In this document: piece by piece, positions 202 through 18,305 of the stretch
How the letters are laid out: each line of letters opens with the position of its first letter
How positions within the stretch are numbered: the stretch's first letter is position 1
Source: an uncultured virus (IMG/VR IMGVR_UViG_3300037067_016575)
Lineage: Duplodnaviria > Heunggongvirae > Uroviricota > Caudoviricetes
Virus record (IMG/VR): IMGVR_UViG_3300037067_016575
Reading direction: 5' to 3' (one strand)
DNA: 20,000 nucleotides
Notes under the pieces: model-generated
Seen by the model: only the letters and a program-made list of their open reading frames with translations
What the model was told of the DNA's origin: nothing
Database searches by the model: none
Made by a program: the position numbers and the translations under genes

Positions 202-227
202 TTCCGGAATGTGAACCGGAAAAAAAG
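202..227 (-). repeat. intergenic hairpin element, copy 1
   Basis: + strand ttccggaatgtgaaccggaaaaaaag next to stop codon at 229. Confidence 0.95.
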
Positions 228-228
228 A

Positions 229-696
229 TTAAAGGTGTCCGTCGCTCATGAAGTTCATGCACAGGCATTTTGTGATGTGTGTAAGATACATCAGTTCATA
301 CTTTGCGCGTTTCCCACTGACGGCCTTTTTCATTTCATCGGAGATTTCCCGAAACTTTGTTTCATTCTCGGTCAACATCTCGGGATATCCGAATGTTATT
401 GTGTACTGCTTTAGAGCGTCAAGAACCGCCTTTGCGTCGCTATTGGCGTCAATTTCGTCCATTAGAGCGAATGTCTCAATACATGTGCTTGCGACCACAG
501 GAACGTCTTTTCTGACTTTGAGATAATCTTCCGTAAACAGTGCAAGGATCTTCTCTGCAAACTGTTTCCCGGTAATCTCATGTATTTCCTTTGCGCGTTC
601 GATTGATATACGATAGTTATACGCCTGTAAGACGTGTATCCCCTCGTTTATCATTTCGGGTTTCCATTCAAATAACGGTTTGGGTAATTTTGCCAT
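229..696 (-). CDS. hypothetical protein (155 aa)
   Basis: ORF with AAGGAG RBS, bounded by two repeat copies. Confidence 0.85.
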   Translation of the reverse strand: MAKLPKPLFEWKPEMINEGIHVLQAYNYRISIERAKEIHEITGKQFAEKILALFTEDYLKVRKDVPVVASTCIETFALMDEIDANSDAKAVLDALKQYTITFGYPEMLTENETKFREISDEMKKAVSGKRAKYELMYLTHITKCLCMNFMSDGHL

Positions 697-724
697 AATT
701 GTTCTCCTTTTGAATGCCTTAATT

Positions 725-750
725 TTCCGGAACGTGAACCGAAAAAAAGG
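725..750 (-). repeat. intergenic hairpin element, copy 2
   Basis: ttccggaacgtgaaccgaaaaaaagg abutting TAA at 751. Confidence 0.95.
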
Positions 751-1467
751 TTAAATGTTTAGTGTCGGGCCTGTTCCCGGTGGCGCAAGATCTGGCTCGT
801 TCCTCAGTAACCTGTCGAGTGTTGTTACTGACCCATCACCACGGACTGCGTAAATTTCTCTATCTTCTTCGCATTCTTTCGCTTTTTTCTTTGCTTCTTT
901 TTCCCGAATTTGTTTTTCTGTGAGATACAAGTTATTTACTTTTTGAGAAATTAACCCCCCCAACTTATTGTTGTCAAATTTATCATAGAGTATAGTGGTT
1001 ACCTGATTGCCTTTTTGGAATACAGTTAGGATATAAAAATTCTTTGATTCTGTTAACCCATATTCCTTATATCCCTCAAAGTTTACATCAAGGTATTCTT
1101 CTAAGGTAAACATTTTAACTTCTGTTGAGGGGGATGTGAGGGTTAAGCTAACATTACCTTCAATCATTTTATTATTTATCATCCGAGCACTATAGATATA
1201 TGTAAATCCTCTCCGATATTCTTTTATTGCACGATCTGGATCGATTTTCCATAATACTTGGAATCCGCCATTTGGATATCGAAATCCTCTGTTATCGGAG
1301 ATCAGATCAACCCGTAATTTTTGCATGTCTTTCTTTGAAAAAGCATAGTAGTGTTTTCCCGGAATTTCATCATATAGTTTTGGGGTTACACCTACTTGCC
1401 TAAAATATGCAAGAGCTTTTTCTTCTTCTTTTGTTTGATAACTTAAATCAAATTTTACACCGAGCAT
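751..1467 (-). CDS. hypothetical protein (238 aa), AT-rich gene
   Basis: start moved to ATG 1467 (MLGVKF) because GAGGTGA lies just upstream. Confidence 0.85.
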   Translation of the reverse strand: MLGVKFDLSYQTKEEEKALAYFRQVGVTPKLYDEIPGKHYYAFSKKDMQKLRVDLISDNRGFRYPNGGFQVLWKIDPDRAIKEYRRGFTYIYSARMINNKMIEGNVSLTLTSPSTEVKMFTLEEYLDVNFEGYKEYGLTESKNFYILTVFQKGNQVTTILYDKFDNNKLGGLISQKVNNLYLTEKQIREKEAKKKAKECEEDREIYAVRGDGSVTTLDRLLRNEPDLAPPGTGPTLNI

Positions 1468-1521
1468 AATTTCACCTCTTAAAATACATATGCACATTTC
1501 TTTACAATAGGATATCTTGTT

Positions 1522-1547
1522 TCCCGGAACGTGAACCGGAAAAAAGG
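1522..1547 (-). repeat. intergenic hairpin element, copy 3
   Basis: tcccggaacgtgaaccggaaaaaagg abutting TAA at 1548. Confidence 0.95.
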
Positions 1548-1994
1548 TTATAATAAATCAGAGGGATCAAATTCAAACCGCCCTTTATTCTTTAGTCCTT
1601 CTGATTTGTGTTCTTTCTTTGGTGCCGGATTCGGTTGTGTTGACTGCCCTGTGTTTGGGTTTGCCGGGGGTATTCCTGATGGAATGTGTACCCCAACTAA
1701 CCCCTCCATTCCCATAACTGAAAAAACCGTTGGTTGTTCTACCGGCGCACTCTCCCACCTCTTTTGAAATTCTCTTTGGATCGCTGTTTCCATGCCTGCA
1801 AGAAAATCATCTGATTTCATATTTTGGGTGACGTGTTCTTCTGCCATTTTTTTATTGAACGTACGCGTGGCTATGTAATAACCTTGTTTCGTTTTGTTTA
1901 CTGTTTCGTCGAGAGCTTTGACGACCCCATTATGTCCAATGTCGTATCCTCTTTGCCATTCGGCTTTATCCTTATAATTCTCATTGATTGCCAT
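1548..1994 (-). CDS. hypothetical protein (148 aa), Pro-rich low-complexity C-terminus
   Basis: ORF, GAGGTGA RBS. Confidence 0.85.
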   Translation of the reverse strand: MAINENYKDKAEWQRGYDIGHNGVVKALDETVNKTKQGYYIATRTFNKKMAEEHVTQNMKSDDFLAGMETAIQREFQKRWESAPVEQPTVFSVMGMEGLVGVHIPSGIPPANPNTGQSTQPNPAPKKEHKSEGLKNKGRFEFDPSDLL

Positions 1995-2012
1995 TTTTCA
2001 CCTCAAATTTTC

Positions 2013-2029
2013 GTATAACGTCGATATAC
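2013..2029. promoter_or_regulatory. GTATA-N7-TATAC palindrome
   Basis: gtata-acgtcga-tatac about 8 nt upstream of the RBS. Confidence 0.7.
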
Positions 2030-2042
2030 GATACTCCTGACA

Positions 2043-2068
2043 TTCCGGAACGTGAACCGGAAAAAAGG
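2043..2068 (-). repeat. intergenic hairpin element, copy 4
   Basis: ttccggaacgtgaaccggaaaaaagg abutting TAA at 2069. Confidence 0.95.
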
Positions 2069-2419
2069 TTAGTAATACTCGATCTCGCTTGTGGGTTGGG
2101 GTAATCTCGGCATTTTTTTGGGGATTACTCCCTTTTTGAATAATTTTTCGACTGCCGCCCATGCTACCCGTTCGTGTTCATGCCACGGATATTCGTCCGG
2201 AATTGTTTTTACATTTACAATAGTCTCTGCGATCATCGTGGCGTCTTCGATAAACGCCTTATCGACGTTCATATACGTATTGCCGTCGATAGATGTGATT
2301 TTCCGTGTTTTCGGATTAATATTGAGTCCTGCCAGATTACTACCGTAAAGTCCGTTTGATAGTTCGGCGTAATAATCTTGGAGAATTGTTTTCCAAATCC
2401 TCACCTTGAATTTTGCCAT
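2069..2419 (-). CDS. hypothetical protein (116 aa)
   Basis: ORF, GAGGTGA RBS. Confidence 0.85.
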   Translation of the reverse strand: MAKFKVRIWKTILQDYYAELSNGLYGSNLAGLNINPKTRKITSIDGNTYMNVDKAFIEDATMIAETIVNVKTIPDEYPWHEHERVAWAAVEKLFKKGVIPKKMPRLPQPTSEIEYY

Positions 2420-2455
2420 AATTTCACCTCTGCATATGTATTTATAGATAAGGCA

Positions 2456-2770
2456 GCAAGAAAACCCCTGTTTTAAAACAGGGGATGAATTGCGTTAACC
2501 CAAACAAATAAATCTGGACTCATCAACCTATGGATGACCATACAATGTTGAATTGTATGTGTGTTGTTCTCACAACAAGTTTGTGCGAACACAATGTAGC
2601 TGGCGACGCTCCTGTAAAGGAAATAGTCAGTAGTGGCCGTTTCAACCGACCTGTGAGAATAAGGCTGGCTTTCGAGCCGGCAAACTTCTCCAAAGTAATC
2701 CGAACGAGATGTGTTGTTCACCCGAACGACCTCACGCTCAATCCTCCCGTTTTAACGGGGGGTAGTTGAA
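2456..2770. mobile_element. non-autonomous IS200/IS605-family element (MITE/PATE-like), no transposase or nuclease gene
   Basis: subterminal palindromes gcaagaaaa-cccctgttttaaaacagggg-atgaattgc (2456-2493) and cctcccgttttaacgggggg-tagttgaa (2743-2770) resemble IS200/IS605 ends; exact boundaries uncertain. Confidence 0.7.
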
Positions 2771-2820
2771 TTGTCAGGATGCAATACCAGATGGTCGGAT
2801 TAAATAGTTCGGGCATTATT

Positions 2821-3192
2821 TCAATCCCCCATTATAAAATCTATTTCGGCAAACCTTTTTTGCGCCCCGATTTTACACGTTTCCTTCTTCGGGGGCGGAG
2901 TTGAATTAATCTCGGTTTCTGTTATTATCTCTATATGTTCAAACCGGTTCGGGGGTTTTGGTATGATAATCCCCTTTATCCACCCGGGATGTTTTTCCGC
3001 ATACTCCTGTTCTTTAACACTGCCAACAAACGCACAGTTAAAACAGGAGTCACAAACACCTCCCCGCCCTAGAGGTGTGTATATGTAATCCTTGCAGGTT
3101 GTTTTTCGGATTACTGTAAGACCGTATCCCATGTCTTTGTTTAAGATCATGCAATACCAGTGGGGATTGAATAATGAATCGCCGTATCCCAT
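2821..3192 (-). CDS. hypothetical Cys-containing protein (123 aa; CxxCxxC)
   Basis: ORF, GAGGT RBS; CDSCFNC motif; two RFxxI[ED] motifs near C-terminus. Confidence 0.8.
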   Translation of the reverse strand: MGYGDSLFNPHWYCMILNKDMGYGLTVIRKTTCKDYIYTPLGRGGVCDSCFNCAFVGSVKEQEYAEKHPGWIKGIIIPKPPNRFEHIEIITETEINSTPPPKKETCKIGAQKRFAEIDFIMGD

Positions 3193-3328
3193 AATCTAAA
3201 ACCTCTATATTGCGTTTCTAATCGTGCCAGAAGGAATGACCCTACAAACACGTGATCCTCACCCATTTACGCGCCTGTCTGCGTAATACGCCCTTCTGAA
3301 AAGGGGAGAGGGGTTTAGGGTGAGGGGT

Positions 3329-3356
3329 TCTTTTCTCTTAAATGGAAGAGAAAAGA
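3329..3356 (-). terminator. 11-bp stem hairpin within a pyrimidine-rich tract downstream of the AAA operon
   Basis: tcttttctctt / aagagaaaaga inverted repeat, about 40 nt after stop at 3395. Confidence 0.4.
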
Positions 3357-3394
3357 GGTATTCGGGGAGAAGAGGGGGAAACGTTCTCTTTTCA

Positions 3395-4195
3395 TCAGAA
3401 CATATCCGCAACATCGATCCGGTCTGCGATCTTGGAACTGGTTTTGACAGGTTTACCCTTTTCGGGTCTGCCGTCCGGATGGAGTTCTGGAACCTCTGAC
3501 TCATCAGCAGCTTTTGCGCCGCCATCTAAGTAATCGATTTCGTTCTCCATTACAACGTCAACCGTCGAGAACCGGTCTTTTTCTTCGTCCAGAATTTCCA
3601 TGATCTCTTTTTGGAGCGGAAGGATCTGGTCTGCCATGATCATATTCCGCATCTCTTCGATCCGGTGGTCGATCTGAACGTCTTCCGTTACATTGACCGT
3701 TTTAAGCCGATCCAGCATCTTAAGAAGTGCTCCCCGTGTGCGGGAAGTCATCTTATCCCCGTTTTTCTCAATGGTCTCGGAGATCTTCTTGAGTACCTTC
3801 TCGTGGATCTGGGTCTGGATCTGGGAGAGCATCTCTTCCATGAGGTTTTCAGTCTGCAAACCCGACATGGAGAGTGGGATGAAATGGATATCTGCCTTTA
3901 ACGTCGGGTCAATCGCTTGCATCGAGAGATGTGCGTCTTGTACGACCTTTTCAAGCTGACCTTTCCCGATATCGTTAGTGATCCTCATCGTGTAAAACTT
4001 GGCGCATGTTCCCACGGCCATGTTTACCTGTTGCCTTACCACCCCGATCTGATTGCGCTGCTCTTTCTGGAAATGATAATACAATTTTTTGGAGTTCTCA
4101 GACTCGTTGATCTCGGTCTTATCCGTGAAATTCGGACTTGACATCTTGAGTTCAACGACGTAGAGTTGTCCTTTTGCTGTTGTTACTGCTGCCAT
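3395..4195 (-). CDS. hypothetical helical protein with acidic tail (266 aa), last gene of AAA module
   Basis: ORF, GAGGTAA RBS, composition similar to the ATPase gene. Confidence 0.9.
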   Translation of the reverse strand: MAAVTTAKGQLYVVELKMSSPNFTDKTEINESENSKKLYYHFQKEQRNQIGVVRQQVNMAVGTCAKFYTMRITNDIGKGQLEKVVQDAHLSMQAIDPTLKADIHFIPLSMSGLQTENLMEEMLSQIQTQIHEKVLKKISETIEKNGDKMTSRTRGALLKMLDRLKTVNVTEDVQIDHRIEEMRNMIMADQILPLQKEIMEILDEEKDRFSTVDVVMENEIDYLDGGAKAADESEVPELHPDGRPEKGKPVKTSSKIADRIDVADMF

Positions 4196-4256
4196 AAGTT
4201 TACCTCACCGATACAAGATTGTTTGGCAAAGAAAAGAGTTTTGAATTTCGCCGACC

Positions 4257-4475
4257 TTACCGGTGGACGAAAACTTCTGATCCCTTCTCTTCGAGGTAGG
4301 GCGTGTGGGCTTCCGCCATGAGATCCTGTTCCTTGACATTGGACTTGATCCCGTTGGATTCGAGATGCTTTCGGAGCTGCGCAAGGACTTCCGTGCATTT
4401 TGCACTCTTGAATCCTTCTGCGTGAACTTCGAGTTCCCCGCCATTCGAGATCCGGTATGTAATATTTTCTGACAT
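4257..4475 (-). CDS. DUF2997-like protein (72 aa)
   Basis: ITYRISNGGELEVHAEGFKSAKC fits the DUF2997 pattern (I.F.I..dG.V...v.G..G..C); typical neighbour of DUF1257/Ycf46. Confidence 0.7.
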   Translation of the reverse strand: MSENITYRISNGGELEVHAEGFKSAKCTEVLAQLRKHLESNGIKSNVKEQDLMAEAHTPYLEEKGSEVFVHR

Positions 4476-4477
4476 AG

Positions 4478-4876
4478 TTAGAACCTCGTTGCGGTAATCA
4501 GGATCTTACCGTCCTTGTCCTTTGTTACCTGCTGCGTGAATCCCTGCTTCGTGTTGAAGTCCTTGATGACCGCCGCCTGATACTGATCCTGTACCATGTT
4601 GGTCACCTTGGCGAATTCCTTGTTGCACTGCCACGGGTCGCCCTGCATCTCGTAGCTCTTCTTGTCCTCGGACTTGATAAACCTGAGATTACCCTGTTTC
4701 TGGTAACCATCAATCGGGGGATAGTTGACCTTGATCATGGTCTTGTCGGGATTCATGGAGTAAGTGAACTTGACTTTCTCCGTTGAAAGCTCTTTCTGCA
4801 TTGCTTTGAGTGCGTCTTCCAGCATCTTTGCGCTGGTTAACTCGCACTTTGTTTTGAGTGTCGTTATATGTGACAT
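4478..4876 (-). CDS. DUF1257 (Ycf35-like) protein (132 aa)
   Basis: start moved to ATG 4876 giving MSHITTLKTK...L.DAL, the characteristic MSH N-terminus; the upstream ORF extension runs through the repeat. Confidence 0.75.
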   Translation of the reverse strand: MSHITTLKTKCELTSAKMLEDALKAMQKELSTEKVKFTYSMNPDKTMIKVNYPPIDGYQKQGNLRFIKSEDKKSYEMQGDPWQCNKEFAKVTNMVQDQYQAAVIKDFNTKQGFTQQVTKDKDGKILITATRF

Positions 4877-4904
4877 TCTTGTGATACCTCGTAAATATTG
4901 GGTG

Positions 4905-4928
4905 TTCGGACTTCGATACTGGATACCA
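4905..4928. promoter_or_regulatory. AAA-module-specific upstream motif, copy a
   Basis: ttcggacttcgatactggatacca, 21/24 identical to 7043-7066. Confidence 0.6.
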
Positions 4929-4930
4929 AC

Positions 4931-4950
4931 TTCCGGAACGAACCGGGAAA
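4931..4950 (-). repeat. intergenic hairpin element, copy 5 (6-nt loop)
   Basis: ttccggaacgaaccgggaaa, 12 nt from stop at 4963. Confidence 0.85.
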
Positions 4951-4962
4951 GTGGTTTGGATG

Positions 4963-5190
4963 TCACCCGCAATAATGCACAGAAACCTTACTAGGATTGA
5001 TTCCGTTGGCTTTTAAATGTGCGATCAGTGCTTGGTCGTTCCCGGAACAAATAACCTCGCCATTCGAGATTATTACGTCCGTACGGGGTGACGGGTCAAC
5101 CGGAACCACACTCAAATCCTCATGCCCTAGTGCCGTAAGGTTTGCTCCCGGCATAAAGGCAAGGGAAAAAAGAGGGTTGTGGTTAACCAT
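4963..5190 (-). CDS. hypothetical protein (75 aa) within AAA module
   Basis: ATG 5190 after GGAGG, avoiding overlap with the ATPase; ends HYCG. Confidence 0.7.
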   Translation of the reverse strand: MVNHNPLFSLAFMPGANLTALGHEDLSVVPVDPSPRTDVIISNGEVICSGNDQALIAHLKANGINPSKVSVHYCG

Positions 5191-5206
5191 ATCCTCCCGG
5201 TGCCGC

Positions 5207-7009
5207 TCAGTCAATATCGCCGAGATCGGCTTTGCTGATTTCATCTTTAACGTCATTTTCCGTTACCACGTCGATTGTGCTGGCCCGGGTTCCGATCTTC
5301 TCTTTTGATGATACGATCTTCTTTCGGGCTTCTTCATCGTCCGACGCATTGATCGCGTTCTCTTCCGCCCAACGGATCATTGCATCCAGAATGTCCTTCT
5401 TCTGAGTGGTGATCGGTGTTACATCCTTCATCGCCTTGACAATGTGATCCGTCGTCAGGGGTTTTGCCCCTTCGTCGAATGCGTTACCAAGTGCGTCCTG
5501 AATGGTGTTACGGATTTCACGACCTACAAACCCTTCGCTGGCATCGGCCAGCTTTTCAAGGTCGAAATCTTCTGGGTTACGCTTGACGGCCTTGATGTGG
5601 ATACGGAAGATCTCGATCCGTTCCTTCCGAGTCGGAGCGTTCACGAAAAACATCTTTGGGAACCGGCTCATCAGTTCTGCCTTGAGGCTCGCGTGATCGT
5701 TGCACGTTGCTACGACAAAAACGCCTTTCGACTCTTCCATCTCCGTCAGGAACGACCCGAACAACCGGGCGGATTCCTCGTGCATTTCACCGTTCTGGCC
5801 GGCACCAAGTGCCTTTTCGATCTCATCAATCCAGAGGATACAGGGAGCCAGTGCCTTGGCGAGTTTCCACGTGTTCCTCATGTTGTTAGACGACTCGCCG
5901 TAATATTTACTGACGAGCTGGGACATGTCCAACCGTAGGAGCGGAAGCCGGAGTTCGTTGCCGCACGCCTTCGCGACCAGTGATTTACCAGAGCCGGGAA
6001 CACCGACCATGATAATACCACGGGGCGGGTCAATACCGTATTCCCGAGCCTCCTTTCCGAAGTGCTTTGAGGCAGATCGGATGTACGCTTTCAGGGTGTT
6101 AAGTCCCCCAATAGACTCCGACGTTTCCTCCGGTTCCCAGTACTCAAGCTGACCGGACTTCTTGATGATCTGCTTTTTCTCGCTGATGATCGTCTTGATG
6201 TTCAGATCGCCGTTGATCAGACACTTGGCGAACACGTTCTCGCATTCTTCGAGCGTGAGACCCAGCGCCGCCGCTACTATCGCGTCCTTGTTGGCGTTTA
6301 CCTGATCATTGAGAGTCTTCTTCTTCGCCAGTAGTTTGGTCAGCATCGCTTTCTGCGATTTTGCATTCTCGGGATCACTTGTTTCTTTGATGTTATCCTT
6401 CATCGTCTGTTCCTGATCGGACAGCCCTTTGATCGCAGCGCATAAGATCGCCTCGATCTCGGACTTGTCCGGCAGTGGCACGTCGATGATGCTGATCACT
6501 TTCTGCAAATCGACTGGAATAGATACGACCGGTGAGACAAGGATGATGATTTTCCTCTGTCCTTTCAGAACCGGGACGATATCACGGAGTTTACGCTGTA
6601 CCAACGGAACATCCTTCATGAATCCGTGGGTATCCAGCATAATGAAAATGTTTCCAGCGGTTCGTACTTGTTTGTCGTCTGCTCCCTTGTACTGTTCTGT
6701 GAGCTTCTTGGAACGGACTGCCTCCATTGCGTCGAACAACGTAAGTATCGTAGGGGTGTCGTCGTTTTCCGTTGAGTTTTGATCGGTATTTGTCTGAACC
6801 CATGTCGTGTTTGTTACATCGATCATCCGATGATCGACATTCCTGAAACCTGATGCACCGGAATAGATATACACGGTGCGGTGTTCATCTTTGGCGATAT
6901 CCGCAATGATTTCTATGACACGAGATTCCTCATGGGTTTCAATGGCAATAACCGGGTATCGAGCCCGGATGTGGGTTGATAATTCCTTTTTTAGTTCTGC
7001 AATTCCCAT
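5207..7009 (-). CDS. Ycf46-like AAA+ ATPase (600 aa; degenerate N-terminal domain plus C-terminal AAA domain with intact Walker motifs)
   Basis: N-term IRARYPVIAIETHEESRV; IGGLNTLK; Walker A GVPGSGKS; LPLLRLD; Walker B ILWIDEIEK; sensor-1 ATCN. Confidence 0.9.
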   Translation of the reverse strand: MGIAELKKELSTHIRARYPVIAIETHEESRVIEIIADIAKDEHRTVYIYSGASGFRNVDHRMIDVTNTTWVQTNTDQNSTENDDTPTILTLFDAMEAVRSKKLTEQYKGADDKQVRTAGNIFIMLDTHGFMKDVPLVQRKLRDIVPVLKGQRKIIILVSPVVSIPVDLQKVISIIDVPLPDKSEIEAILCAAIKGLSDQEQTMKDNIKETSDPENAKSQKAMLTKLLAKKKTLNDQVNANKDAIVAAALGLTLEECENVFAKCLINGDLNIKTIISEKKQIIKKSGQLEYWEPEETSESIGGLNTLKAYIRSASKHFGKEAREYGIDPPRGIIMVGVPGSGKSLVAKACGNELRLPLLRLDMSQLVSKYYGESSNNMRNTWKLAKALAPCILWIDEIEKALGAGQNGEMHEESARLFGSFLTEMEESKGVFVVATCNDHASLKAELMSRFPKMFFVNAPTRKERIEIFRIHIKAVKRNPEDFDLEKLADASEGFVGREIRNTIQDALGNAFDEGAKPLTTDHIVKAMKDVTPITTQKKDILDAMIRWAEENAINASDDEEARKKIVSSKEKIGTRASTIDVVTENDVKDEISKADLGDID

Positions 7010-7042
7010 ATTTGGTTAACCTCCCTCCATAGTATAGGGATA

Positions 7043-11551: not shown

Positions 11552-11555
11552 GATA

Positions 11556-11720
11556 TCACCTCGTGGTTTCCGGAATCAGATGCCCCTCGTCATCATAAGG
11601 GCAGTTTTCCAAGTCTGGTTCACCCGGGCAAATATCTCCTTTTCGCTCGGGGCATTTTAGACATAGACATTTCTTGCATTGTTTTTCCGTGCCGGGACAT
11701 TTATTACAACCCATTGCCAT
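11556..11720 (-). CDS. small Cys-rich protein (54 aa, 8 Cys)
   Basis: hand-translated MAMGCNKCPGTEKQCKKCLCLKCPERKGDICPGEPDLENCPYDDEGHLIPETTR; GAGGTAA RBS; below ORF-track cutoff. Confidence 0.75.
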   Translation of the reverse strand: MAMGCNKCPGTEKQCKKCLCLKCPERKGDICPGEPDLENCPYDDEGHLIPETTR

Positions 11721-11739
11721 GATTTTACCTCTGAAACTT

Positions 11740-11756
11740 GTATACCGTCGATATAC
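11740..11756. promoter_or_regulatory. GTATA-N7-TATAC palindrome
   Basis: gtata-ccgtcga-tatac. Confidence 0.7.
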
Positions 11757-11790
11757 GACGTATTCAACTACTTACCTGAAATGCCTCGTT

Positions 11791-11816
11791 CTCCGGAACG
11801 TGAACCGGAAAAAGGG
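11791..11816 (-). repeat. intergenic hairpin element, copy 10 (long composite form)
   Basis: ctccggaacgtgaaccggaaaaaggg after tandem TAG TAA. Confidence 0.95.
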
Positions 11817-11819
11817 TTA

Positions 11820-12506
11820 CTATTTATTACAGAAAATTGGTTTATATTCGGGAGGTTCCCCGGCATATGCAACACAAATTGCATTTTTTACTTTTTCTGG
11901 GAGCATTGCGTACCGATCTCTCCCCTGATTTTTTACGGCGTCACAATACATTTTATATCCCTCATCCCATGGGGCGGAGAAATGAGTTTGATGATCCCCC
12001 CAATGTACAAATTTCGGGCGGAATATATCAGATCGGGATATCCATTTTTGAAGGAACGTTCCTTGTTCTGCCAGATAGTTGATACGCCCCGTTATTTCAC
12101 CACACGAATCGCGGCAATCGTGATCCCCTACCCATATTTTATGTGAGCCGACGGTTTCTACCCCCCCACTACACCCGGGCATATACCACGGGTCTTGAGA
12201 GACATATTCCGAAATGAGATCTGCCTGTTCTGGTGAATACTTGCTGAAACAGTAAACAAGAAGGTCTCTGAAATAATCTTCTTGCTTCTTCGGTTCCCAT
12301 TCAAAATAGTAATTTCCCCCATTGACACTCCCCCCATTATAATAGGTGTCAAAGGTTAGCACAATCCCGTAGTTTTCGTGAAAAAATACGTAAAATGTGT
12401 CTTTAATATGATCGGGTTCTATTTTTACTTGAAACGGTATTTCAAGGACTTTTTTAAACCCGAAATTCTCAATTTTTTTGATATAGTTTTCTACATTTTT
12501 CTCCAT
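11820..12506 (-). CDS. hypothetical protein (228 aa)
   Basis: ORF, GAGGTGA RBS, bounded by repeat copies. Confidence 0.9.
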   Translation of the reverse strand: MEKNVENYIKKIENFGFKKVLEIPFQVKIEPDHIKDTFYVFFHENYGIVLTFDTYYNGGSVNGGNYYFEWEPKKQEDYFRDLLVYCFSKYSPEQADLISEYVSQDPWYMPGCSGGVETVGSHKIWVGDHDCRDSCGEITGRINYLAEQGTFLQKWISRSDIFRPKFVHWGDHQTHFSAPWDEGYKMYCDAVKNQGRDRYAMLPEKVKNAICVAYAGEPPEYKPIFCNK

Positions 12507-12525
12507 GAGTTCACCTCGTTTTTTC

Positions 12526-12542
12526 GTATACCTTCGATATAC
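12526..12542. promoter_or_regulatory. GTATA-N7-TATAC palindrome
   Basis: gtata-ccttcga-tatac. Confidence 0.7.
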
Positions 12543-12576
12543 GACGTGTTCAACCTCTCCTCTGAAACACCTCGTT

Positions 12577-12602
12577 CTCCGGAGCGCGAACCGGAAAAAA
12601 GG
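12577..12602 (-). repeat. intergenic hairpin element, copy 11 (long composite form)
   Basis: ctccggagcgcgaaccggaaaaaagg. Confidence 0.9.
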
Positions 12603-12630
12603 TTGGTTTTATTTTCCTCAATTATGGGAT

Positions 12631-12789
12631 TTAGTACGTCTCAAACATGAGGTAGGGGCAACTTTCAGGCCCGTCAACCTCTGCATATACCCGCACTTTA
12701 CGACCATCGGGAAGTTTTGCGAAGAGAACGTTGTTTTCAACAATGAGCACGCCCCCAACAACATCTTCCTGACTTAATGTTTCAAACAT
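12631..12789 (-). CDS. small hypothetical protein (52 aa)
   Basis: hand-translated MFETLSQEDVVGGVLIVENNVLFAKLPDGRKVRVYAEVDGPESCPYLMFETY; starts 3 nt after upstream stop. Confidence 0.65.
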   Translation of the reverse strand: MFETLSQEDVVGGVLIVENNVLFAKLPDGRKVRVYAEVDGPESCPYLMFETY

Positions 12790-12792
12790 TTT

Positions 12793-13047
12793 TTACTTCA
12801 TCTCTTTCATGATCTTTGATTTCATATGGCCGGGAACAGCGCAGAATATGGGGGCGTGGGGTTCACTCTCTGACTTGATCCACGAAAACGGTACGGCACT
12901 TCCTACGATAACAAACGCCAGAATTGAGATAAGTGCACCGAAATAGAGGTTGTTTAGGAAAAGTCCTGCCAGTATTCCCCCAACCATCGAGGACAACCCG
13001 ATCCATGCGAGAAGTTTTTCCCCTTTTTCTTTACCGAATTGAATCAT
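12793..13047 (-). CDS. small membrane protein, 2 TM (84 aa)
   Basis: two hydrophobic segments; GGAGGT RBS. Confidence 0.8.
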   Translation of the reverse strand: MIQFGKEKGEKLLAWIGLSSMVGGILAGLFLNNLYFGALISILAFVIVGSAVPFSWIKSESEPHAPIFCAVPGHMKSKIMKEMK

Positions 13048-13337
13048 GTTTTTACCTCCGTAATTTCTCCCTGAATTACACCGTTCGGGTATTCGTAGAC
13101 GATGAATTTGATTTTGGATTCCCCGCCAACGTATAACGTGCCGGAAAACTCGAAAACTGTAATCGCATCCACCGAATACTTTACGTTATCTATGTCCCTC
13201 GGAAATGTGATCCCATTAAATGATGCCTCATATTTTACCGCCGATATCATCGGTTCTCTATCCCTTAAATAACATTCTTTCCGAAGGATCGTTATCTGCC
13301 CTAACTCTATATCGTAGAGTTTTTTTCTTTGCTCCAT
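13044..13337 (-). CDS. hypothetical protein (97 aa)
   Basis: ATGA overlap with downstream gene. Confidence 0.8.
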   Translation of the reverse strand: MEQRKKLYDIELGQITILRKECYLRDREPMISAVKYEASFNGITFPRDIDNVKYSVDAITVFEFSGTLYVGGESKIKFIVYEYPNGVIQGEITEVKT

Positions 13338-13340
13338 GCC

Positions 13341-13703
13341 TCACCTTCTAGTTTTGACGTTCAGGGTTGCTTTTAACCCGTTGTATTCCTCATTATACCC
13401 GAGCCTGCCCCCGAGGAATTTATACACTGAAAACTCCACTCCGTTAATGTAATCGGCGATTTCTCCCGTAAAATATTTTACTGAAAGTTTGCCGTCGATT
13501 AACAGAACAACTTCTGAGAACTTTACAGGGTGTTTGTGGTTTCCAGCACAGTGGACGGTGACGTTATTATATCCGACAACACCGTTTTCTTTTGTTACGG
13601 TGATCGTCGTTGCTTTTTCGGAGTGCACCATTTCCCATAAATCCGGACGGTTGCCGAACATGTTTTCCGGTTTGTCTGATTTAATAAGGCGATCAAAAAT
13701 CAT
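13341..13703 (-). CDS. hypothetical protein (120 aa)
   Basis: ATGA overlap with upstream gene. Confidence 0.8.
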   Translation of the reverse strand: MIFDRLIKSDKPENMFGNRPDLWEMVHSEKATTITVTKENGVVGYNNVTVHCAGNHKHPVKFSEVVLLIDGKLSVKYFTGEIADYINGVEFSVYKFLGGRLGYNEEYNGLKATLNVKTRR

Positions 13704-14191
13704 TTTCTCACCCTCCTATGGGGTCGATATCTCGTTGGTTCTGCCGGGGCGAATACTTTCTTTGGAACGACGGTAATAACTTTTTCTTTCGGAAACGGCG
13801 TGGCGTTCCTCGGAATGTGATTTACCTCGTAGTTTGTACAGTTCTCGCAGGTCGGCGGGGTTCCGTTAAGTAAGTCGTCGAAGTTTATTCCGTTCCTGAA
13901 AACTCCTGAAACGGTTTCCATCGCGGAACGGATCGGATAATACAAATAGGTGATTCCCCCTATAATGAGAAGAAGACCCCCCATGAATCCGACGAGTAAT
14001 ACGGTTTTCGGGAAAAAGGTGTCGATTGTCGGCATTGTCAGGGTTTCACTCCCGGACATACTCCCCGCCGAGAATGACGAGGGGATGGTAAGGACGTTGT
14101 TTAGGGTATCTATCCCGATTTTTGCGAGCAGGACTACCCCGCACACAATAAGCGCGATGCCTACTATTTTCGTCAGAAATTCTTTCCTCAT
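13700..14191 (-). CDS. membrane protein, 2 TM plus CxxC (163 aa)
   Basis: start moved to ATG 14191 (MRKEFL); the extension translates the palindrome. Confidence 0.8.
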   Translation of the reverse strand: MRKEFLTKIVGIALIVCGVVLLAKIGIDTLNNVLTIPSSFSAGSMSGSETLTMPTIDTFFPKTVLLVGFMGGLLLIIGGITYLYYPIRSAMETVSGVFRNGINFDDLLNGTPPTCENCTNYEVNHIPRNATPFPKEKVITVVPKKVFAPAEPTRYRPHRRVRK

Positions 14192-14216
14192 GATACCAAC
14201 TCCGTTGAAATTTTTC

Positions 14217-14233
14217 GTATACCGCCGATATAC
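14217..14233. promoter_or_regulatory. GTATA-N7-TATAC palindrome (no hairpin element here)
   Basis: gtata-ccgccga-tatac. Confidence 0.7.
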
Positions 14234-14240
14234 AGTCCGT

Positions 14241-14546
14241 TTACACATCCACGGTTTTATCCGTATATTTGTAAACTGACCCGTTTAAACACGTTAAATA
14301 TCGGCGTTGTTCAACCTTTGTAACCGGATATATGGTACAGACCTTTACGCAGATCAGGCGCGTACTTTCAAAATACCTGTCTTCTGTGTGATTAACCGTT
14401 ATTGAGCACGATTGATCGATTGTTGATTCTTCCGATGGGGAAAATATACATACGGCAATTATTGCCACAAGAAGAACCACACAGATAACCATACAGATCG
14501 AGAGCCCCCATTCTATTCCGTCCCAATTTTTCCAAAAATTTTTCAT
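14241..14546 (-). CDS. single-TM protein with Cys-containing outer domain (101 aa)
   Basis: N-terminal hydrophobic helix; GAGGTG RBS. Confidence 0.8.
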   Translation of the reverse strand: MKNFWKNWDGIEWGLSICMVICVVLLVAIIAVCIFSPSEESTIDQSCSITVNHTEDRYFESTRLICVKVCTIYPVTKVEQRRYLTCLNGSVYKYTDKTVDV

Positions 14547-14580
14547 TACACCACCTCACTAATGTATATGCATACCCGAA

Positions 14581-14603
14581 TCCCGGAACCCAAACCGGAA
14601 AAA
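14581..14603 (-). repeat. intergenic hairpin element, copy 12
   Basis: tcccggaacccaaaccggaaaaa abutting TAA at 14604. Confidence 0.85.
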
Positions 14604-15128
14604 TTAAACGTGCGTCGTTGGGGATTCTGATACGTATATTACTGCTCCGAAAAAGGTTAGTATGTTCCCCACCCAGAACAGGCACCACATAAGCGTTGTC
14701 GCCACTACAAACGAATAAATTAAGTATCCGTTGTATAAGCACAACCCAAACGCAATTACGCCTATCATTGCGGATATGCTTTTTAATGTTAGTGATGAAG
14801 TCCTTGATGTTAGGTGCGCAATAAATGTGGTTAGTGTGTAAAGCCAGAAAATAATCCACATTCCCGGATCTGCATTGATAAAATTAAATAAATGGTAGTA
14901 AGTTACAACCACAACCGCTGTTGAAATTACCCCAATGAGTTTTCCGAATCCATCTAATGCGGGGATTCTCATTAGGATAAAACCCACACTGCCGGTAACT
15001 ACATACACTCCGAAAAGCAACCAGATCACCGACGGTGCCTTTACAAGGTCATATAAGAGATACGACGCTACGAGACTTGAAACAAGTCCGATGATACTCA
15101 TAAAGATGCTAATTCCTTTACTTGCCAT
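14604..15128 (-). CDS. polytopic membrane protein, ~6 TM, three internal repeats (174 aa)
   Basis: start moved to ATG 15128 (MASKGIS) after GAGGTG; 3x IG[LV][VI]...Y.[LI]...A....W.[LI]F. Confidence 0.85.
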   Translation of the reverse strand: MASKGISIFMSIIGLVSSLVASYLLYDLVKAPSVIWLLFGVYVVTGSVGFILMRIPALDGFGKLIGVISTAVVVVTYYHLFNFINADPGMWIIFWLYTLTTFIAHLTSRTSSLTLKSISAMIGVIAFGLCLYNGYLIYSFVVATTLMWCLFWVGNILTFFGAVIYVSESPTTHV

Positions 15129-15148
15129 GATTCCACCTCGTGAAATTT

Positions 15149-15165
15149 GTATAACGTCGATATAC
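15149..15165. promoter_or_regulatory. GTATA-N7-TATAC palindrome
   Basis: gtata-acgtcga-tatac. Confidence 0.7.
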
Positions 15166-15201
15166 GACGTATTCAAACCACTCGCCTGAAAACACATCGC
15201 T

Positions 15202-15227
15202 CCCCGGAACATGAACCGGGAAAAATG
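15202..15227 (-). repeat. intergenic hairpin element, copy 13 (long composite form)
   Basis: ccccggaacatgaaccgggaaaaatg followed by tta. Confidence 0.9.
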
Positions 15228-15232
15228 TTAAT

Positions 15233-15649
15233 TTATGATGCCGGGCTTTTTGCTTCCCGTTCTGCATCGCGTTTTTCTATGACTTCCCCGGCACCGATAA
15301 GCGCCCCGATAAACTTTTGCTGTACTGGATCAAGGGCGAAACACGCATTAAAGTTACGTGCTTCTTCGAGAGACGCATACACGCCGATCCCATCGAATAT
15401 GACATGTCCTTTCTCGTCGATCCCCATGACTTTGATCGGTGAATACGTGCTTTTCTTCGGCGTATTCCACCAACCATTTTTCGGGTTTTTCGTCTGTGAT
15501 ACTGCCCGTTGCCCGGCTTTTGTGGATTCGATCCAGAACCGGATCATCGTTCGCAGTTTAAACCCATACGGATAATCATCGACGACAAAAGCGGTTTCTT
15601 CGCTCGTGTGTCCAGTAAGCTGTTTTATGAATGGTTTGTGTTCGTACAT
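15233..15649 (-). CDS. conserved hypothetical protein of mobile elements (138 aa)
   Basis: GHTSEETAFVVDDYPYGFKLR...WNTPKKSTY recalls an uncharacterised phage/plasmid family; GAGGTAA RBS. Confidence 0.85.
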   Translation of the reverse strand: MYEHKPFIKQLTGHTSEETAFVVDDYPYGFKLRTMIRFWIESTKAGQRAVSQTKNPKNGWWNTPKKSTYSPIKVMGIDEKGHVIFDGIGVYASLEEARNFNACFALDPVQQKFIGALIGAGEVIEKRDAEREAKSPAS

Positions 15650-15668
15650 GATTTTACCTCGTGTTTTC

Positions 15669-15685
15669 GTATACCGTCGATATAC
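15669..15685. promoter_or_regulatory. GTATA-N7-TATAC palindrome
   Basis: gtata-ccgtcga-tatac. Confidence 0.7.
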
Positions 15686-15691
15686 GGTATA

Positions 15692-15724
15692 CCTGTTTTT
15701 CCGGAACGTGAACCGTAAAACAGG
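15692..15724 (-). repeat. intergenic hairpin element, copy 14 (extended stem)
   Basis: cctgtttttccggaacgtgaaccgtaaaacagg. Confidence 0.9.
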
Positions 15725-15729
15725 CAGAT

Positions 15730-16010
15730 CTTATGGATTTTTAAGACGTGCTTTTTGGATATAGACCTCCCGAATGAACGGAGATAACGAAGGTATCCCG
15801 CCGTCACAAAAGCGTTTCGGACGGCGGGATCTTACTGATGAGGTCTATTTTTGGGGAGTTCTTTGGTTTGAGAGGTTTGGTCTGTGTGTATCTGTGCTCG
15901 TGCTGCTTTACTAGGTTTAGTTTCGGCAGAATACGGTAACCGTCTATCTGCGCTAAAGGTCGTAGACCTGATTAATTCCCGCCGTAAACAAGACGACGGG
16001 GGAATCGAGA
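15730..16010 (-). ncRNA. candidate structured non-coding RNA cassette
   Basis: no RBS-supported ORF; nested stems 15761-15769/15840-15848 and 15795-15805/15820-15830; strand inferred from context. Confidence 0.4.
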
Positions 16011-16040
16011 CCCCGGAATGAACCGTGAACCTCGTAAAAA
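16011..16040 (-). repeat. divergent hairpin element copy
   Basis: ccccggaatgaaccgtgaacctcgtaaaaa abutting TAA at 16041. Confidence 0.65.
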
Positions 16041-16487
16041 TTATTTTTTCGTTGGTGTTCTACTAATTGGGTCTCCTGCCGGGGTGAATCCATGTTGGAT
16101 CATCATGGTTGCCCGTCGTAATTCACCCATATAACACATTGTATGATATTGGTCTTCTGCCATCCTTTCATTATCTGTTTTTGCTCCGAATGGTAGTTGA
16201 ATGTGTTCGGCAACAAAATCGAAAAGGTATTGGTATTCAACGAAGTTAATGAATACCGGGCCGAGACGCATTTCCTGAAGTAAATCTCGGTCTGTGTAGG
16301 TTAATACATGTCCTTCATCGAGATGTATATAACCCCTTTCTTCTCCGAAATGCGGCCAAATCACACTTGATACCTCAATAATTTTCCGGTCTTTCCAATA
16401 AAACCCGTCGGTTTTCCATGAAACGTCTTCCCGACAGAAAGGCACTTCAATTAAATCAGATGTGTTTAATGATGATTTTAGTTTCAC
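16041..16487 (-). CDS. hypothetical protein (148 aa)
   Basis: GTG start after GAGGTGA. Confidence 0.8.
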   Translation of the reverse strand: MKLKSSLNTSDLIEVPFCREDVSWKTDGFYWKDRKIIEVSSVIWPHFGEERGYIHLDEGHVLTYTDRDLLQEMRLGPVFINFVEYQYLFDFVAEHIQLPFGAKTDNERMAEDQYHTMCYMGELRRATMMIQHGFTPAGDPISRTPTKK

Positions 16488-16513
16488 ATTATCACCTCTT
16501 TGTTTTTAATTCG

Positions 16514-16543
16514 GAGGGTTAGGAACAATGAACCTCTACCCTC
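16514..16543 (-). repeat. divergent hairpin element copy (new stem, similar loop)
   Basis: coding strand GAGGGTAGAGG-TTCATTGTT-CCTAACCCTC. Confidence 0.5.
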
Positions 16544-16663
16544 GCAGAAACCGATTTTGTTTTAGGACAGGGAAGTTTTTTTACTACTTCCGAAAACGCA
16601 CGGTTAACGGCTATTACGCCTTATACTCAATTCCTTACCTCTTCGATGGTCGGGGGTAAGGGG

Positions 16664-16698
16664 ATATGTTGCCCCGTAGTGAACCGGGGAAAACATAT
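16664..16698 (-). repeat. divergent hairpin element copy
   Basis: coding strand ATATGTTTTCCCCGG-TTCACTA-CGGGGCAACATAT directly after stop at 16698. Confidence 0.65.
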
Positions 16699-17177
16699 TA
16701 TTCCCTGTCGGGACAGGGAATAACCGGGCCATCATACCACATATGACCCATGCAATAAATACAATTAATGACCTCGTATGCTTCCTTGCTGTTGTTTGCG
16801 TTGGCATACAAGCGGAGATTATTTGATCCGTACGACGTATACGGAACTATTTTTGCTAATCCCCCCGCTCGTTTGATTGCGTCCCGTGCTAATTCTACAG
16901 TTTCCCGCGTATGGAATGAACGCACCTTTAAATACACTTTTCTCCCGTATTTACGGGGCATTGGCTCGCAGAATCCCTCTGCAAGCCCCATATTGCCGTC
17001 GGTTGTTTGTATTACTGTGATTAGACCACGGGGCGGGTCAATGCCGTATTCCCGAGCCTCCTTTCCGAAGTGCTTTGAGGCAAATCGAATGTACGCTTTC
17101 AGGGTGTTTAACCCTCCAATGGATTCTGGTGTTTCCGACGGTTCCCTTGTCATTACGTCCACGGCATGTGTTACCAT
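16698..17177 (-). CDS. chimeric protein (159 aa) carrying a 40-aa segment of the AAA ATPase
   Basis: ESIGGLNTLKAYIRFASKHFGKEAREYGIDPPRG nearly identical to the ATPase segment. Confidence 0.75.
   Translation of the reverse strand: MVTHAVDVMTREPSETPESIGGLNTLKAYIRFASKHFGKEAREYGIDPPRGLITVIQTTDGNMGLAEGFCEPMPRKYGRKVYLKVRSFHTRETVELARDAIKRAGGLAKIVPYTSYGSNNLRLYANANNSKEAYEVINCIYCMGHMWYDGPVIPCPDRE
17025..17146 (-). repeat. 122-bp direct repeat of 6017-6138
   Basis: hand alignment: 14 mismatches, no gaps. Confidence 0.95.
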
Positions 17178-17181
17178 ATTC

Positions 17182-17358
17182 TCACTCCGGGATGTCCTGA
17201 ATTATTGGAATTTCCGTGTACGGGAATGTCATTACCATCCCACCGTCACACCGAGGACATTTCATCCAGATTCTTATTTCACTTTCTGGCCGGACAATTT
17301 GGACTTTTTCTACATCCATGTGTTGACCATCCTTCCGACAGGTAATACCAACATCCAT
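17182..17358 (-). CDS. small Zn-ribbon-like protein (58 aa)
   Basis: hand-translated MDVGITCRKDGQHMDVEKVQIVRPESEIRIWMKCPRCDGGMVMTFPYTEIPIIQDIPE; fills the gap between neighbours. Confidence 0.7.
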   Translation of the reverse strand: MDVGITCRKDGQHMDVEKVQIVRPESEIRIWMKCPRCDGGMVMTFPYTEIPIIQDIPE

Positions 17359-17361
17359 CTT

Positions 17362-17802
17362 TCATTTCCCCCCTTTCTTTTTACGTTGTGCTTTCTTGAA
17401 ATCCTGATATTTTTTGTCTTCTTTCTCCCGGATCGCCTTACCCTCATCAACATGGATCGCCATGCCTTCCGGGACACATTGACCTTTGGCAAGCAGTTCC
17501 GCAATGCTCCGGCATGCCAGTATTGCTTTATCCGGGGTTGAGATAGGGGGTGTCTTGTAATCGATCCTTCGGTTCCGATCAAATACCCGGCCCTCATATT
17601 GACCGTCCGTTAGGGGGAAAATGTTGTATTCCTTGTGGTGATGCTTTCGCATGGGATACAACGCCCGGACTTGCGTTATGGGGGTTTTAGGGGCATCCCC
17701 GTTTGGTTGATGCCACCCGCAATAAGATTTATCGGGGCATTGCCCGGTTATGTTGCATTTCTCCTCATTGATACAGGGAGGTTTTGTTTTTTTGAGTGCC
17801 AT
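17362..17802 (-). CDS. hypothetical basic protein with N-terminal Cys/His cluster (146 aa)
   Basis: C-x5-C-x5-C-x5-C-x2-H; GAGG RBS. Confidence 0.8.
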   Translation of the reverse strand: MALKKTKPPCINEEKCNITGQCPDKSYCGWHQPNGDAPKTPITQVRALYPMRKHHHKEYNIFPLTDGQYEGRVFDRNRRIDYKTPPISTPDKAILACRSIAELLAKGQCVPEGMAIHVDEGKAIREKEDKKYQDFKKAQRKKKGGK

Positions 17803-17838
17803 TGTTACGTCCTCATCCTAATTTTTTGTTGCCGGTCA

Positions 17839-18243
17839 TTAATGAGTTTTCATGTATTTTTTTACGGCTGTGTTCACCGCGCTCCCAGATGCAGTAATCC
17901 CAAGGAATCCCGCGTGTTTTTCATCGCTGCAATATTGAGCATATGCGTTGATATCTTCGGGTTGCGGTTTCTCACTCCACGACACAAAGAGTGTTGTGTA
18001 TCTGTCTGGACACCCGTGGCAACCAGAGGTTATTACCGTATCTGCAAAAAACCTCTTAAGTGGGTTTTGCCTTTTCATGCCCCATCCGCGTACCGTGTCC
18101 GGAATCCACTTCTCGTTTTTACGAGAGCATATCGCGGAACCGCACTCAATAATGAGAGCGGTGGGGCGTCCATCGTCGGTATATTGAACGTACCCTTTCT
18201 TATTGTGGAACCGCTCGTTTTTTCCAACTTTCCAAATACTCAT
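17839..18243 (-). CDS. hypothetical protein (134 aa)
   Basis: AGGTGA RBS; AT-rich TTTATAATA tract upstream. Confidence 0.8.
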   Translation of the reverse strand: MSIWKVGKNERFHNKKGYVQYTDDGRPTALIIECGSAICSRKNEKWIPDTVRGWGMKRQNPLKRFFADTVITSGCHGCPDRYTTLFVSWSEKPQPEDINAYAQYCSDEKHAGFLGITASGSAVNTAVKKYMKTH

Positions 18244-18276
18244 CTTGGTTCACCTGCATTAATTATATTATAAATT

Positions 18277-18305
18277 CCCGGACGACGGAATGACCCGACG
18301 CCGGG
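18277..18305 (-). repeat. divergent hairpin element copy (long stem)
   Basis: coding strand CCCGGCGTCGG-GTCATT-CCGTCGTCCGGG; preceded by TTTTAACGAGTTTC, similar to the 16011-16040 copy. Confidence 0.5.

Follow-up and report, generated by a model that had tools for sequence, protein, structure and literature searches.

A repeated hairpin linked to stop codons in the gene array of a probable archaeal virus, and its possible role in transcript punctuation

Repeated intergenic modules are known from several viruses. In the T4-type phages RB49/phi1, PST and nt-1, recombination between modules that reach from one stop codon to the next start codon (promoter and stem-loop modules, PeSLs) generates insertions and deletions as well as mini-circles (PMC2839356, PMC4122927). 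The motif preceding open reading frames (ORFs) in the halovirus HGTV-1, a TATA-like region combined with an inverted repeat, has already been likened to PeSLs (PMC3950731), and the class I/II intergenic repeats of the halovirus HF2, which are 29-58 bp long and lie between early and middle genes, are proven TATA promoters (PMC8707807). Integrons, which occur in Archaea as well (10.1101/2022.02.06.479319), carry attC sites defined by an R'' box (RYYYAAC) that pairs with an R' box (GTTRRRY) at the foot of a hairpin whose bottom strand is folded and recombined (PMC12901181), and at the RNA level tRNA-like t-elements are substrates of archaeal tRNase Z and RNase P (PMC4326828, PMC3296008). Here we describe a hairpin repeat found behind stop codons in a 20,000-nucleotide stretch of DNA from an uncultured virus (IMG/VR record IMGVR_UViG_3300037067_016575; hereafter the window), which may punctuate the transcripts of an array of genes encoded on one strand.

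The window matches, in reversed orientation, the initial 20 kb of contig Ga0265297_10001011 (71,044 bases), which was recognized in a metagenome pattern scan; an assembly of 83 kb also exists. A further 10.6 kb of this contig (L012) could be read, giving 30.6 kb in total. A fuzzy search with the 24-nt core of the repeat (up to 6 edits) detected 14 copies in the window and none in the opposite orientation, compared to a mean of 0.33 and a maximum of 1 core matches in 30 dinucleotide shuffles of the window. These are the 14 clear copies in a single orientation that had been listed in an earlier inspection of the letters (hereafter the sequence-only reading), whose coordinates proved correct to within 2-9 nt. 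A covariance model trained on 25 copies recovered all 14 and added two diverged window copies outside the training set, both located directly 3' of a stop codon (15998-16042, E 0.087; 16659-16703, E 0.13); only these two of the "about 4 divergent copies" suggested before could thus be retained. An inverted repeat near 18250-18320 was considered as a further copy and rejected (no model match up to an E limit of 5; fold z-score -1.0). A scan beyond the window, as had been proposed, yielded three more copies in L012 and nine on two related contigs, with seven on L010 (8.6 kb) and two on L009 (1.9 kb); among them was the third untrained copy (L010 5972-6017, E 0.0016), which also follows a stop codon. 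Of the 28 copies in total, 19 are located on the 30.6 kb of the window's contig. All 28 lie on the coding strand in the direction of transcription, with no inverted or paired copies; within the window, the spacing from copy to copy ranges from 310 to 2,886 nt. Rfam 15, including its CRISPR repeats, gave no match in the window at E values up to 1.

The element is a hairpin of approximately 33 nt with 11-13 base pairs, a bulge on the 3' arm and a near-invariant head (CGG-UUCR..CCG); CGGTTCR is kept in 25 of the 28 copies. Seventeen copies have a loop of 8 nt and eleven a loop of 6 nt; 7-nt loops do not occur. On the coding strand the consensus reads (TAA)-CCTT-TTTTCCGG-loop-CCGGRAAA-bulge-AAGG-YATT. 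The core of the consensus given in the sequence-only reading recurs, but the element is longer than described there, because the T-run and the preceding CC pair with RAAA-(bulge)-AAGG. This T-run of at least four residues lies directly behind the stop codon (alignment columns 14-16 are T in 25/25 copies), and a conserved AT is found just 3' of the stem (17/25 and 21/25); the distance between the two varies by about 5 nt in the alignment, together with insertions and deletions in loop and stem. Modelled with 13 pairs, the stem is paired in 84.8% of 315 cells, compared to 38-66% when one arm is slid against the other, and two-sided changes occur at 7 of the 13 pairs, a number equalled in 4 out of 500 shuffles. 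Paired rewrites of the outer stem were seen in single copies (CCTG/CAGG, ACAT/ATGT, ACCA/TGGT), and in two of the untrained copies the stems are rewritten and still paired (16659-16703, z -3.2; L010 5972-6017, z -4.1); the fold of the third, 15998-16042, is unremarkable (z -0.13). The T-run is broken in diverged copies, while the pairing is retained.

The base pairs also carry information about the strand that folds. For the inner eight pairs of 25 copies we counted 159 Watson-Crick, 20 G-U, 2 A-C and 11 other cells, and the excess of G-U over A-C indicates that the hairpin folds on the mRNA strand. In 21 out of 25 copies the predicted RNA fold of the coding strand is the more stable one; when folded as DNA this is the case for 14 out of 25, with both strands being about equal. 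In addition, a dimeric protein bound to duplex DNA would not easily fit the variation between loops of 6 and 8 nt.

The repeat is tightly linked to gene ends. In 24 of the 28 cases it starts 6-23 nt behind the stop codon of an ORF of at least 57 amino acids, and the next start codon follows at a distance of 40-106 nt (200 and 376 nt for two diverged window copies). TAA had been regarded as a part of the element. Indeed, a TAA ends 8-10 nt before the CGG head in 17/28 copies, where it serves as stop codon in 11, is kept despite an earlier gene end in 5 and is unclear in 1; it is missing from this position in the other 11 copies and is therefore common, yet not required. Neither within nor behind 24 of the 28 copies is there a TATA-like hexamer, so that a visible promoter would be missing for a stop and restart at each copy. 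Bacterial signals occur at chance level, both for sigma-70 promoter-like sites (35 vs 36.7 in shuffles) and for terminator-like sites (26 vs 22.6). A second module, the dyad GTATA-N7-TATAC with its fixed spacer of 7 nt, precedes ten ribosome sites in the 30.6 kb and is probably a regulator site. Since one dyad (14217-14233) has no hairpin in front, the dyad and hairpin modules are separable. The leaders are of two interchangeable types, either very short or about 55 nt longer and equipped with the dyad. Between copies 15998-16042 and 15684-15732 there is a stretch of 271 nt free of ORFs, whose fold z-score is -4.2 for the coding strand, compared to -1.0 for the opposite strand.

Other dyads were seen in some leaders. 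Those of the AAA ATPase gene and its partner block share a variant of their own instead of GTATA-N7-TATAC (4900-4920, 7035-7060). A different, AT-rich dyad (TAATTAC-N3/4-GTAATTA; by eye) is located at L012 12590-12640 and 19085-19120, where it precedes a tRNA cluster and a later gene, and represents a candidate second promoter class.

Gene order and the repeat were compared between the three contigs, which have six gene families in common (30-74% protein identity). Four families shared with L010 are arranged in the order D-A-C-E on the window's contig and A-E-C-D on L010; two shared with L009 are adjacent there and far apart on the window's contig. The presence of a hairpin agrees at the 3' ends of all six shared genes (three with, three without), but only at 2 out of 5 of their 5' ends, so the hairpin appears to go with the upstream gene, although numbers are small. 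The multi-gene units between copies are not conserved as blocks in the relatives. It had been proposed to test whether changes in gene order break at the element; among these distant relatives this is in part the case, but 3 out of 10 readable gene ends have changed neighbours without a hairpin in either genome (a count that leaves out the neighbour behind gene D, which is cut off in L010).

Within the genome, hairpin and leader recur as modules with 78-94% identity over 73-117 nt, bounded by the stop codon and the ribosome site. For one module pair the similarity extends into approximately 150 nt of coding sequence, and two paralogous genes (window 751-900 and L012 10676-10828) have a nearly identical C-terminal stretch in common, including the hairpin that follows it (78% over 211 nt). 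Similarity among copies is higher inside a genome than across genomes (0.66 vs 0.61; permutation p 0.009 with 17 and 6 copies). Copies from equivalent positions do not match each other best, ranking 9, 9 and 14 of 17 in similarity. This pattern of concerted evolution would fit ongoing non-allelic exchange among the repeats. Contigs of four DNA runs, in which rare forms are dropped, contain no joint that would need an excised circle; the joints found are explained by the L012 copies or by low-depth variant leaders. A joint from 15686 to 15774, considered as a hairpin loss, was too weak to use (depth 2, one contig without the intervening letters), and the region 16-20 kb, thinly covered in runs X5 and X6, was left out of account there. 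The absence of a recombinase noted earlier holds for the 36 proteins of the window and extends to 22 further proteins of L012, as none of these 58 proteins belongs to a recombinase family. With regard to the proposed system for gene capture or shuffling, the differing order in three contigs and the concerted copies fit a PeSL-like exchange between repeats, whereas a dedicated, integron-like system is not supported, the core sites and geometry of attC being missing.

How does the locus compare with the known arrays? Like PeSLs, the repeats form stop-to-start modules (here about 100 nt long) among small orphan genes, with the stem-loop first and the leader behind it; gene content and order vary between relatives in both, and no dedicated recombinase is known for PeSLs. 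PeSLs differ in having a sigma-70 promoter and a tested terminator, whereas here the host is archaeal, scans for both signals stay at shuffle level, a promoter consensus cannot be recognized, and the T-run forms part of the 5' arm instead of following the stem; mini-circles are a feature of PeSLs. The closest archaeal precedent is HGTV-1, a tailed virus with many tRNAs and an end region of small genes behind repeated modules. In its genome (KC292026) these modules show a T-run after the stop codon, an inverted repeat and, some 25 nt ahead of a leaderless ATG, a TATA-like box. However, the sequences are unrelated (covariance model R1 had no match in 94,856 of the 143,855 HGTV-1 bases, the motif region included), and the repeat described here differs by a ribosome site, the lack of a TATA box, a variable loop and G-U pairing on the coding strand. 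The HF2 repeats are likewise intergenic repeats of an archaeal virus, but their positions are conserved among relatives, in contrast to those of the repeat studied here, which moreover is a hairpin conserved in structure; nor is the TATA box about 25 nt before the start, typical of both haloviruses, found in the 24 of 28 modules without a TATA-like hexamer. The array is a variant of the regulatory-cassette arrays of T4-type phages and HGTV-1, set apart by its RNA-type structure conservation and the lack of a TATA box.

The feature is real and well defined, and its sequence is undescribed; no description of it was found in the literature searched. In our view there is about an even chance that it is an RNA stem-loop which sets transcript ends at the boundaries of gene blocks, either by cleavage or by blocking decay, with homologous recombination as a second role. 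Of the two options offered by the sequence-only reading, gene shuffling and transcript processing, the latter is the better supported, because the G-U pairing is strand-specific, the indel in the loop is tolerated, the stem changes are paired and the link to the stop codon is tight; cleavage in particular is suggested by the lack of a promoter behind most copies. In this model, once past the stop codon of the ribosome, the transcript would fold into the bulged stem of 11-13 pairs, whose fixed head may be recognized by a putative protein. The stem would mark the cut site of a long early transcript or a stop for its decay; this would shield the 3' end of each gene block and leave the following block with a defined leader, with the leaders being interchangeable and the long type bearing the probable regulator site. 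As the modules are so similar over about 100 nt at many junctions, they would also offer homology for ordinary recombination, a secondary and passive role by which copies may be homogenized and genes may move, similar to PeSLs.

A number of observations speak against transcript punctuation or weaken it. One copy (15684-15732) has no gene ending upstream, and another (12562-12610) lies 37 nt from its stop codon. The covariation is modest, with 9-10 of 500 shuffles reaching the observed score and percentage of paired cells, and the copies are related. The RNAalifold consensus retains only the inner six pairs, because the position of the bulge moves between copies. The outer five pairs show no strand bias (12 G-U vs 13 A-C), and the G-U excess of the inner stem could in part result from a T-run fixed for another reason combined with A-to-G transitions. 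The dyads in front of ten ribosome sites suggest that transcription also starts inside some modules. Furthermore, the agreement at 3' ends comprises six genes and would arise by chance with a probability of approximately 0.04 (our own estimate) if 3 out of 10 genes carry a hairpin. Finally, from the sequence alone, cutting, protection and termination are indistinguishable.

Termination is central to the main alternative, possible if doubtful, in which the repeat is a DNA-level module: the T-run would end the transcript via the host factor aCPSF1, and the inverted repeat and/or the dyad would bind a viral activator that restarts transcription. The invariant T-run behind the stop codon, the dyads with fixed spacer before ribosome sites and the conserved AT behind the stem as potential start site are consistent with this, as are the HGTV-1 modules, which likewise open with a T-run and hold an inverted repeat, and the HF2 repeats, which are proven promoters (PMC8707807); U4-tracts are the archaeal termination signal (PMC8716108). 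However, a single T-run is a weak terminator (PMC8716108), and here it is part of the stem and is broken in diverged copies that keep their pairing. Its distance to the AT is not constant, most copies lack a TATA-like hexamer, whereas a TATA-like box is present (by eye) about 25 nt before the ATG in the HGTV-1 modules, and scans for sigma-70 promoters and bacterial terminators stayed at chance. A more specific RNA-level explanation, which we consider unlikely, is that minihelices resembling a tRNA arm punctuate the whole early transcript and are cut by host tRNase Z/RNase P or a viral nuclease, with the hairpins moving along behind their genes and acting as boundaries of movable cassettes. As in t-elements, a stem of about 12 pairs is embedded in a longer transcript, and GG-UUCR at the loop (25/28) recalls the T-arm of a tRNA, but the 7-nt T-loop with A58 is not found: loops are 8 or 6 nt, and an A occupies that position in 1 of the 28 copies. 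In phage T7, RNase III sites are located between early genes. These sites are comparable in that a stem of about 12 pairs lies in a longer transcript whose processing would yield separate RNAs. Cutting of the minihelices would release gene-block mRNAs and a structured RNA of 270 nt in a T7- or mitochondrion-like manner; we found no description of it for archaeal viruses in the literature searched.

The repeat could also be a site-specific recombination site, either as folded single-stranded DNA similar to attC or as a duplex of arms of about 13 bp and a spacer of 6-8 bp used by a tyrosine recombinase encoded elsewhere on the element. The latter is the layout of tyrosine-recombinase cores. As in attC arrays and clusters of attC sites lacking integrases (CALINs), all 28 copies are oriented alike, most of them lie closely behind a stop codon, the hairpin has a bulged base on one arm, and AAC is frequent at the 5' foot (18/28); moreover, the hairpin stays with the upstream gene at all six 3' ends while gene order differs among relatives, and the recombinase search covered 30.6 kb of a 71-kb contig. 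We nevertheless judge this quite unlikely, and the comparison with an integron attC array drawn in the sequence-only reading does not extend to membership. RYYYAAC is present in 2/28 copies and GTT at the 3' foot in 2/28, with no paired RYYYAAC/GTTRRRY box; a downstream GTTRRRY occurs in 7/28 (six of which belong to one duplicated leader, about 20 nt past the stem), compared to 5 on the other side. With about 33 nt the hairpin is too short, it is conserved at the loop end and not at the foot, and its top strand is favoured in folding, whereas attC uses the bottom strand (PMC12901181). Besides, a crossover in the spacer would break the paired changes on both arms, the multi-gene units are not kept as blocks, 3 out of 10 changed ends are free of hairpins in both genomes, and no recombinase family, IntI included, is represented among the 36 + 22 proteins of the first 30.6 kb. 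Very unlikely, in our opinion, is a self-spreading repeat similar to repetitive extragenic palindromes (REP) or miniature inverted-repeat transposable elements (MITE), mobilized by a nuclease of the IS200/IS605 type and tolerated in positions after stop codons. Its bulged hairpin with a short conserved motif at the 5' foot would fit, and an IS605-like remnant exists in the window: the gene-less element at 2442-2770 (fold z about -4), whose hairpin ends we take to be IS200/IS605-like, has a depth in run X2 of up to about 300, against 21, and its flanks vary, so that multiple copies exist in the community. However, the ends of this element are unlike the repeat (by eye), the strict polarity of all 28 copies would be unexplained, and a second copy of the repeat is found in none of 94 + 24 other loci, with one lone match among species genomes.

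Searches for the repeat elsewhere gave a consistent picture. Scans of IMG/VR found no second array, and the covariance model produced only single weak matches at pattern-selected sites in 94 other loci and none in 24 more. The lone match among species genomes, in a bacterial metagenome-assembled genome, was taken as chance, and metagenome matches in nine loci (L001, L002, L004, L007, L008, L013, L016, L017, L018) were dismissed as single matches in GC-richer DNA. We also rejected 74 AAA-ATPase loci as relatives, which are distant (21-38% identity) and without the hairpin. Some distant viral loci with an AAA ATPase carry dispersed repeats of their own, with 9-11 copies in L081/L082 and 6 in L095, built on unrelated 12-mers.

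The host of the element is archaeal, as the sequence-only reading had supposed: L012 carries a tRNA cluster with a tRNA-Lys(UUU) (14133-14240; seen by eye and missed by ARAGORN) that has an intron with bulge-helix-bulge fold behind the anticodon, and the ribosome sites are of the GAGGTG type. Further tRNA-like pieces are present in L012 12645-14240. A methanogen would be a candidate host. The metagenomes carrying DNA of the element are labelled landfill and groundwater. A radical SAM protein of the NrdG-activase type (L012 15168-15764; below the NCBIfam cut-off) fits an anaerobic host.

The element itself is most likely a large tailed virus of archaea. Indirect support comes from the AAA ATPase of 600 amino acids, which matches phrog_8638 at 6e-110, from the protein encoded at 3395-4195, whose nearest clusters are 56-100% viral (two of these with DUF3150 in 11-14% of members), and from the tRNA cluster. 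Against this, the readable 30.6 kb revealed no gene for a capsid, portal, terminase or nuclease; the designation as virus is an inference for this reason. Only 1 of the 36 window proteins has a Pfam match above cut-off. A genome end is plausible at the contig end (about 19,980), since a contig of run X2 stops at 19,985, although X2 may itself be the source of this DNA.

The features of the window are listed in Table 1. All array genes are encoded on the - strand, and the copies read in gene direction. The gene block 3395-7009 is interrupted by copy 4918-4962; its DUF2997-like match is weak and below cut-off.

Table 1. Coordinates of hairpin copies, dyads and gene blocks in the window
Coordinates	Strand	Feature	Remarks
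187..235	-	Hairpin copy, 8-nt loop, behind stop of gene 229-696	
709..758	-	Hairpin copy behind stop of gene 751-1467	Short leader to next gene
1507..1555	-	Hairpin copy behind stop of gene 1548-1994	
2013..2029	-	GTATA-N7-TATAC dyad before ribosome site	
2028..2076	-	Hairpin copy behind stop of gene 2069-2419	
3395..7009	-	Gene block: Ycf46/SpoVK-type AAA ATPase (5207-7009), phrog_20456, DUF2997-like, DUF3150-like	
4918..4962	-	Hairpin copy, 6-nt loop	Outer stem ACCA/TGGT
7056..7104	-	Hairpin copy in front of AAA ATPase gene	
8329..8375	-	Hairpin copy, 6-nt loop	
8878..8894	-	GTATA-N7-TATAC dyad	
8913..8961	-	Hairpin copy, long-leader type	
9625..9641	-	GTATA-N7-TATAC dyad	
9660..9708	-	Hairpin copy, long-leader type	
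11740..11756	-	GTATA-N7-TATAC dyad	
11776..11824	-	Hairpin copy, long-leader type	
12526..12542	-	GTATA-N7-TATAC dyad	
12562..12610	-	Hairpin copy, long-leader type	13 pairs, 2 G-U, one bulge
14217..14233	-	GTATA-N7-TATAC dyad	No hairpin in front
14566..14614	-	Weak hairpin copy, inner stem only	Overlaps stop of gene 14604-15128
15149..15165	-	GTATA-N7-TATAC dyad	
15187..15235	-	Hairpin copy	Compensated stem ACAT/ATGT, CCCGG/CCGGG
15669..15685	-	GTATA-N7-TATAC dyad	
15684..15732	-	Hairpin copy, compensated outer stem CCTG/CAGG	No gene end directly upstream
15730..16000	-	Structured non-coding stretch between two hairpin copies; candidate RNA	z -4.2
15998..16042	-	Diverged copy behind stop of gene 16041-16487; weak	E 0.087, z -0.13
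16659..16703	-	Diverged copy behind stop of gene 16698-17177; stems rewritten, paired	z -3.2
18245..18275	-	AT-rich TATA-like stretch before the first gene of the array; candidate head promoter	By eye
229..18243	-	Array of ~36 co-oriented, mostly orphan genes punctuated by hairpins	

Some further observations concern the contig end and the proteins. No convincing gene was recognized in about 1.7 kb at the contig end (window 18300-19985), a region with purine-rich runs towards that end; for parts of it, z-scores of -2 to -3 were obtained on either strand, and it represents a possible terminus or origin. A piece of 44 residues of the AAA ATPase (6010-6138) is copied in frame at 17018-17146 with 88% identity, within an otherwise unrelated ORF of 159 amino acids (16698-17177), which thus is a chimeric gene. 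In addition, 16 of 91 called proteins (L012 14265-19813, window 2821-3192, L010, L009) have a C-terminal tail resembling RFxx(I/L)(D/E) in common, and the consensus of the AAA ATPase family ends in a similar KGRF motif. This tail is possibly a common docking or targeting tag, perhaps linked to the ATPase.

How RNAs end and mature in archaeal viruses has hardly been studied; the archaeal repeat modules known so far, those of HF2 and HGTV-1, are TATA promoters in viruses of halophiles. If the repeat were only a terminator or promoter module, it would be one more case of a recurring virus design. PeSL-style shuffling at regulatory repeats would extend to an anaerobic archaeal element whose leaders contain ribosome sites, and the repeat provides a short, ready substrate for asking whether repeated hairpins are cleavage points for polycistronic early RNA in archaeal viruses, and which enzyme would act there.

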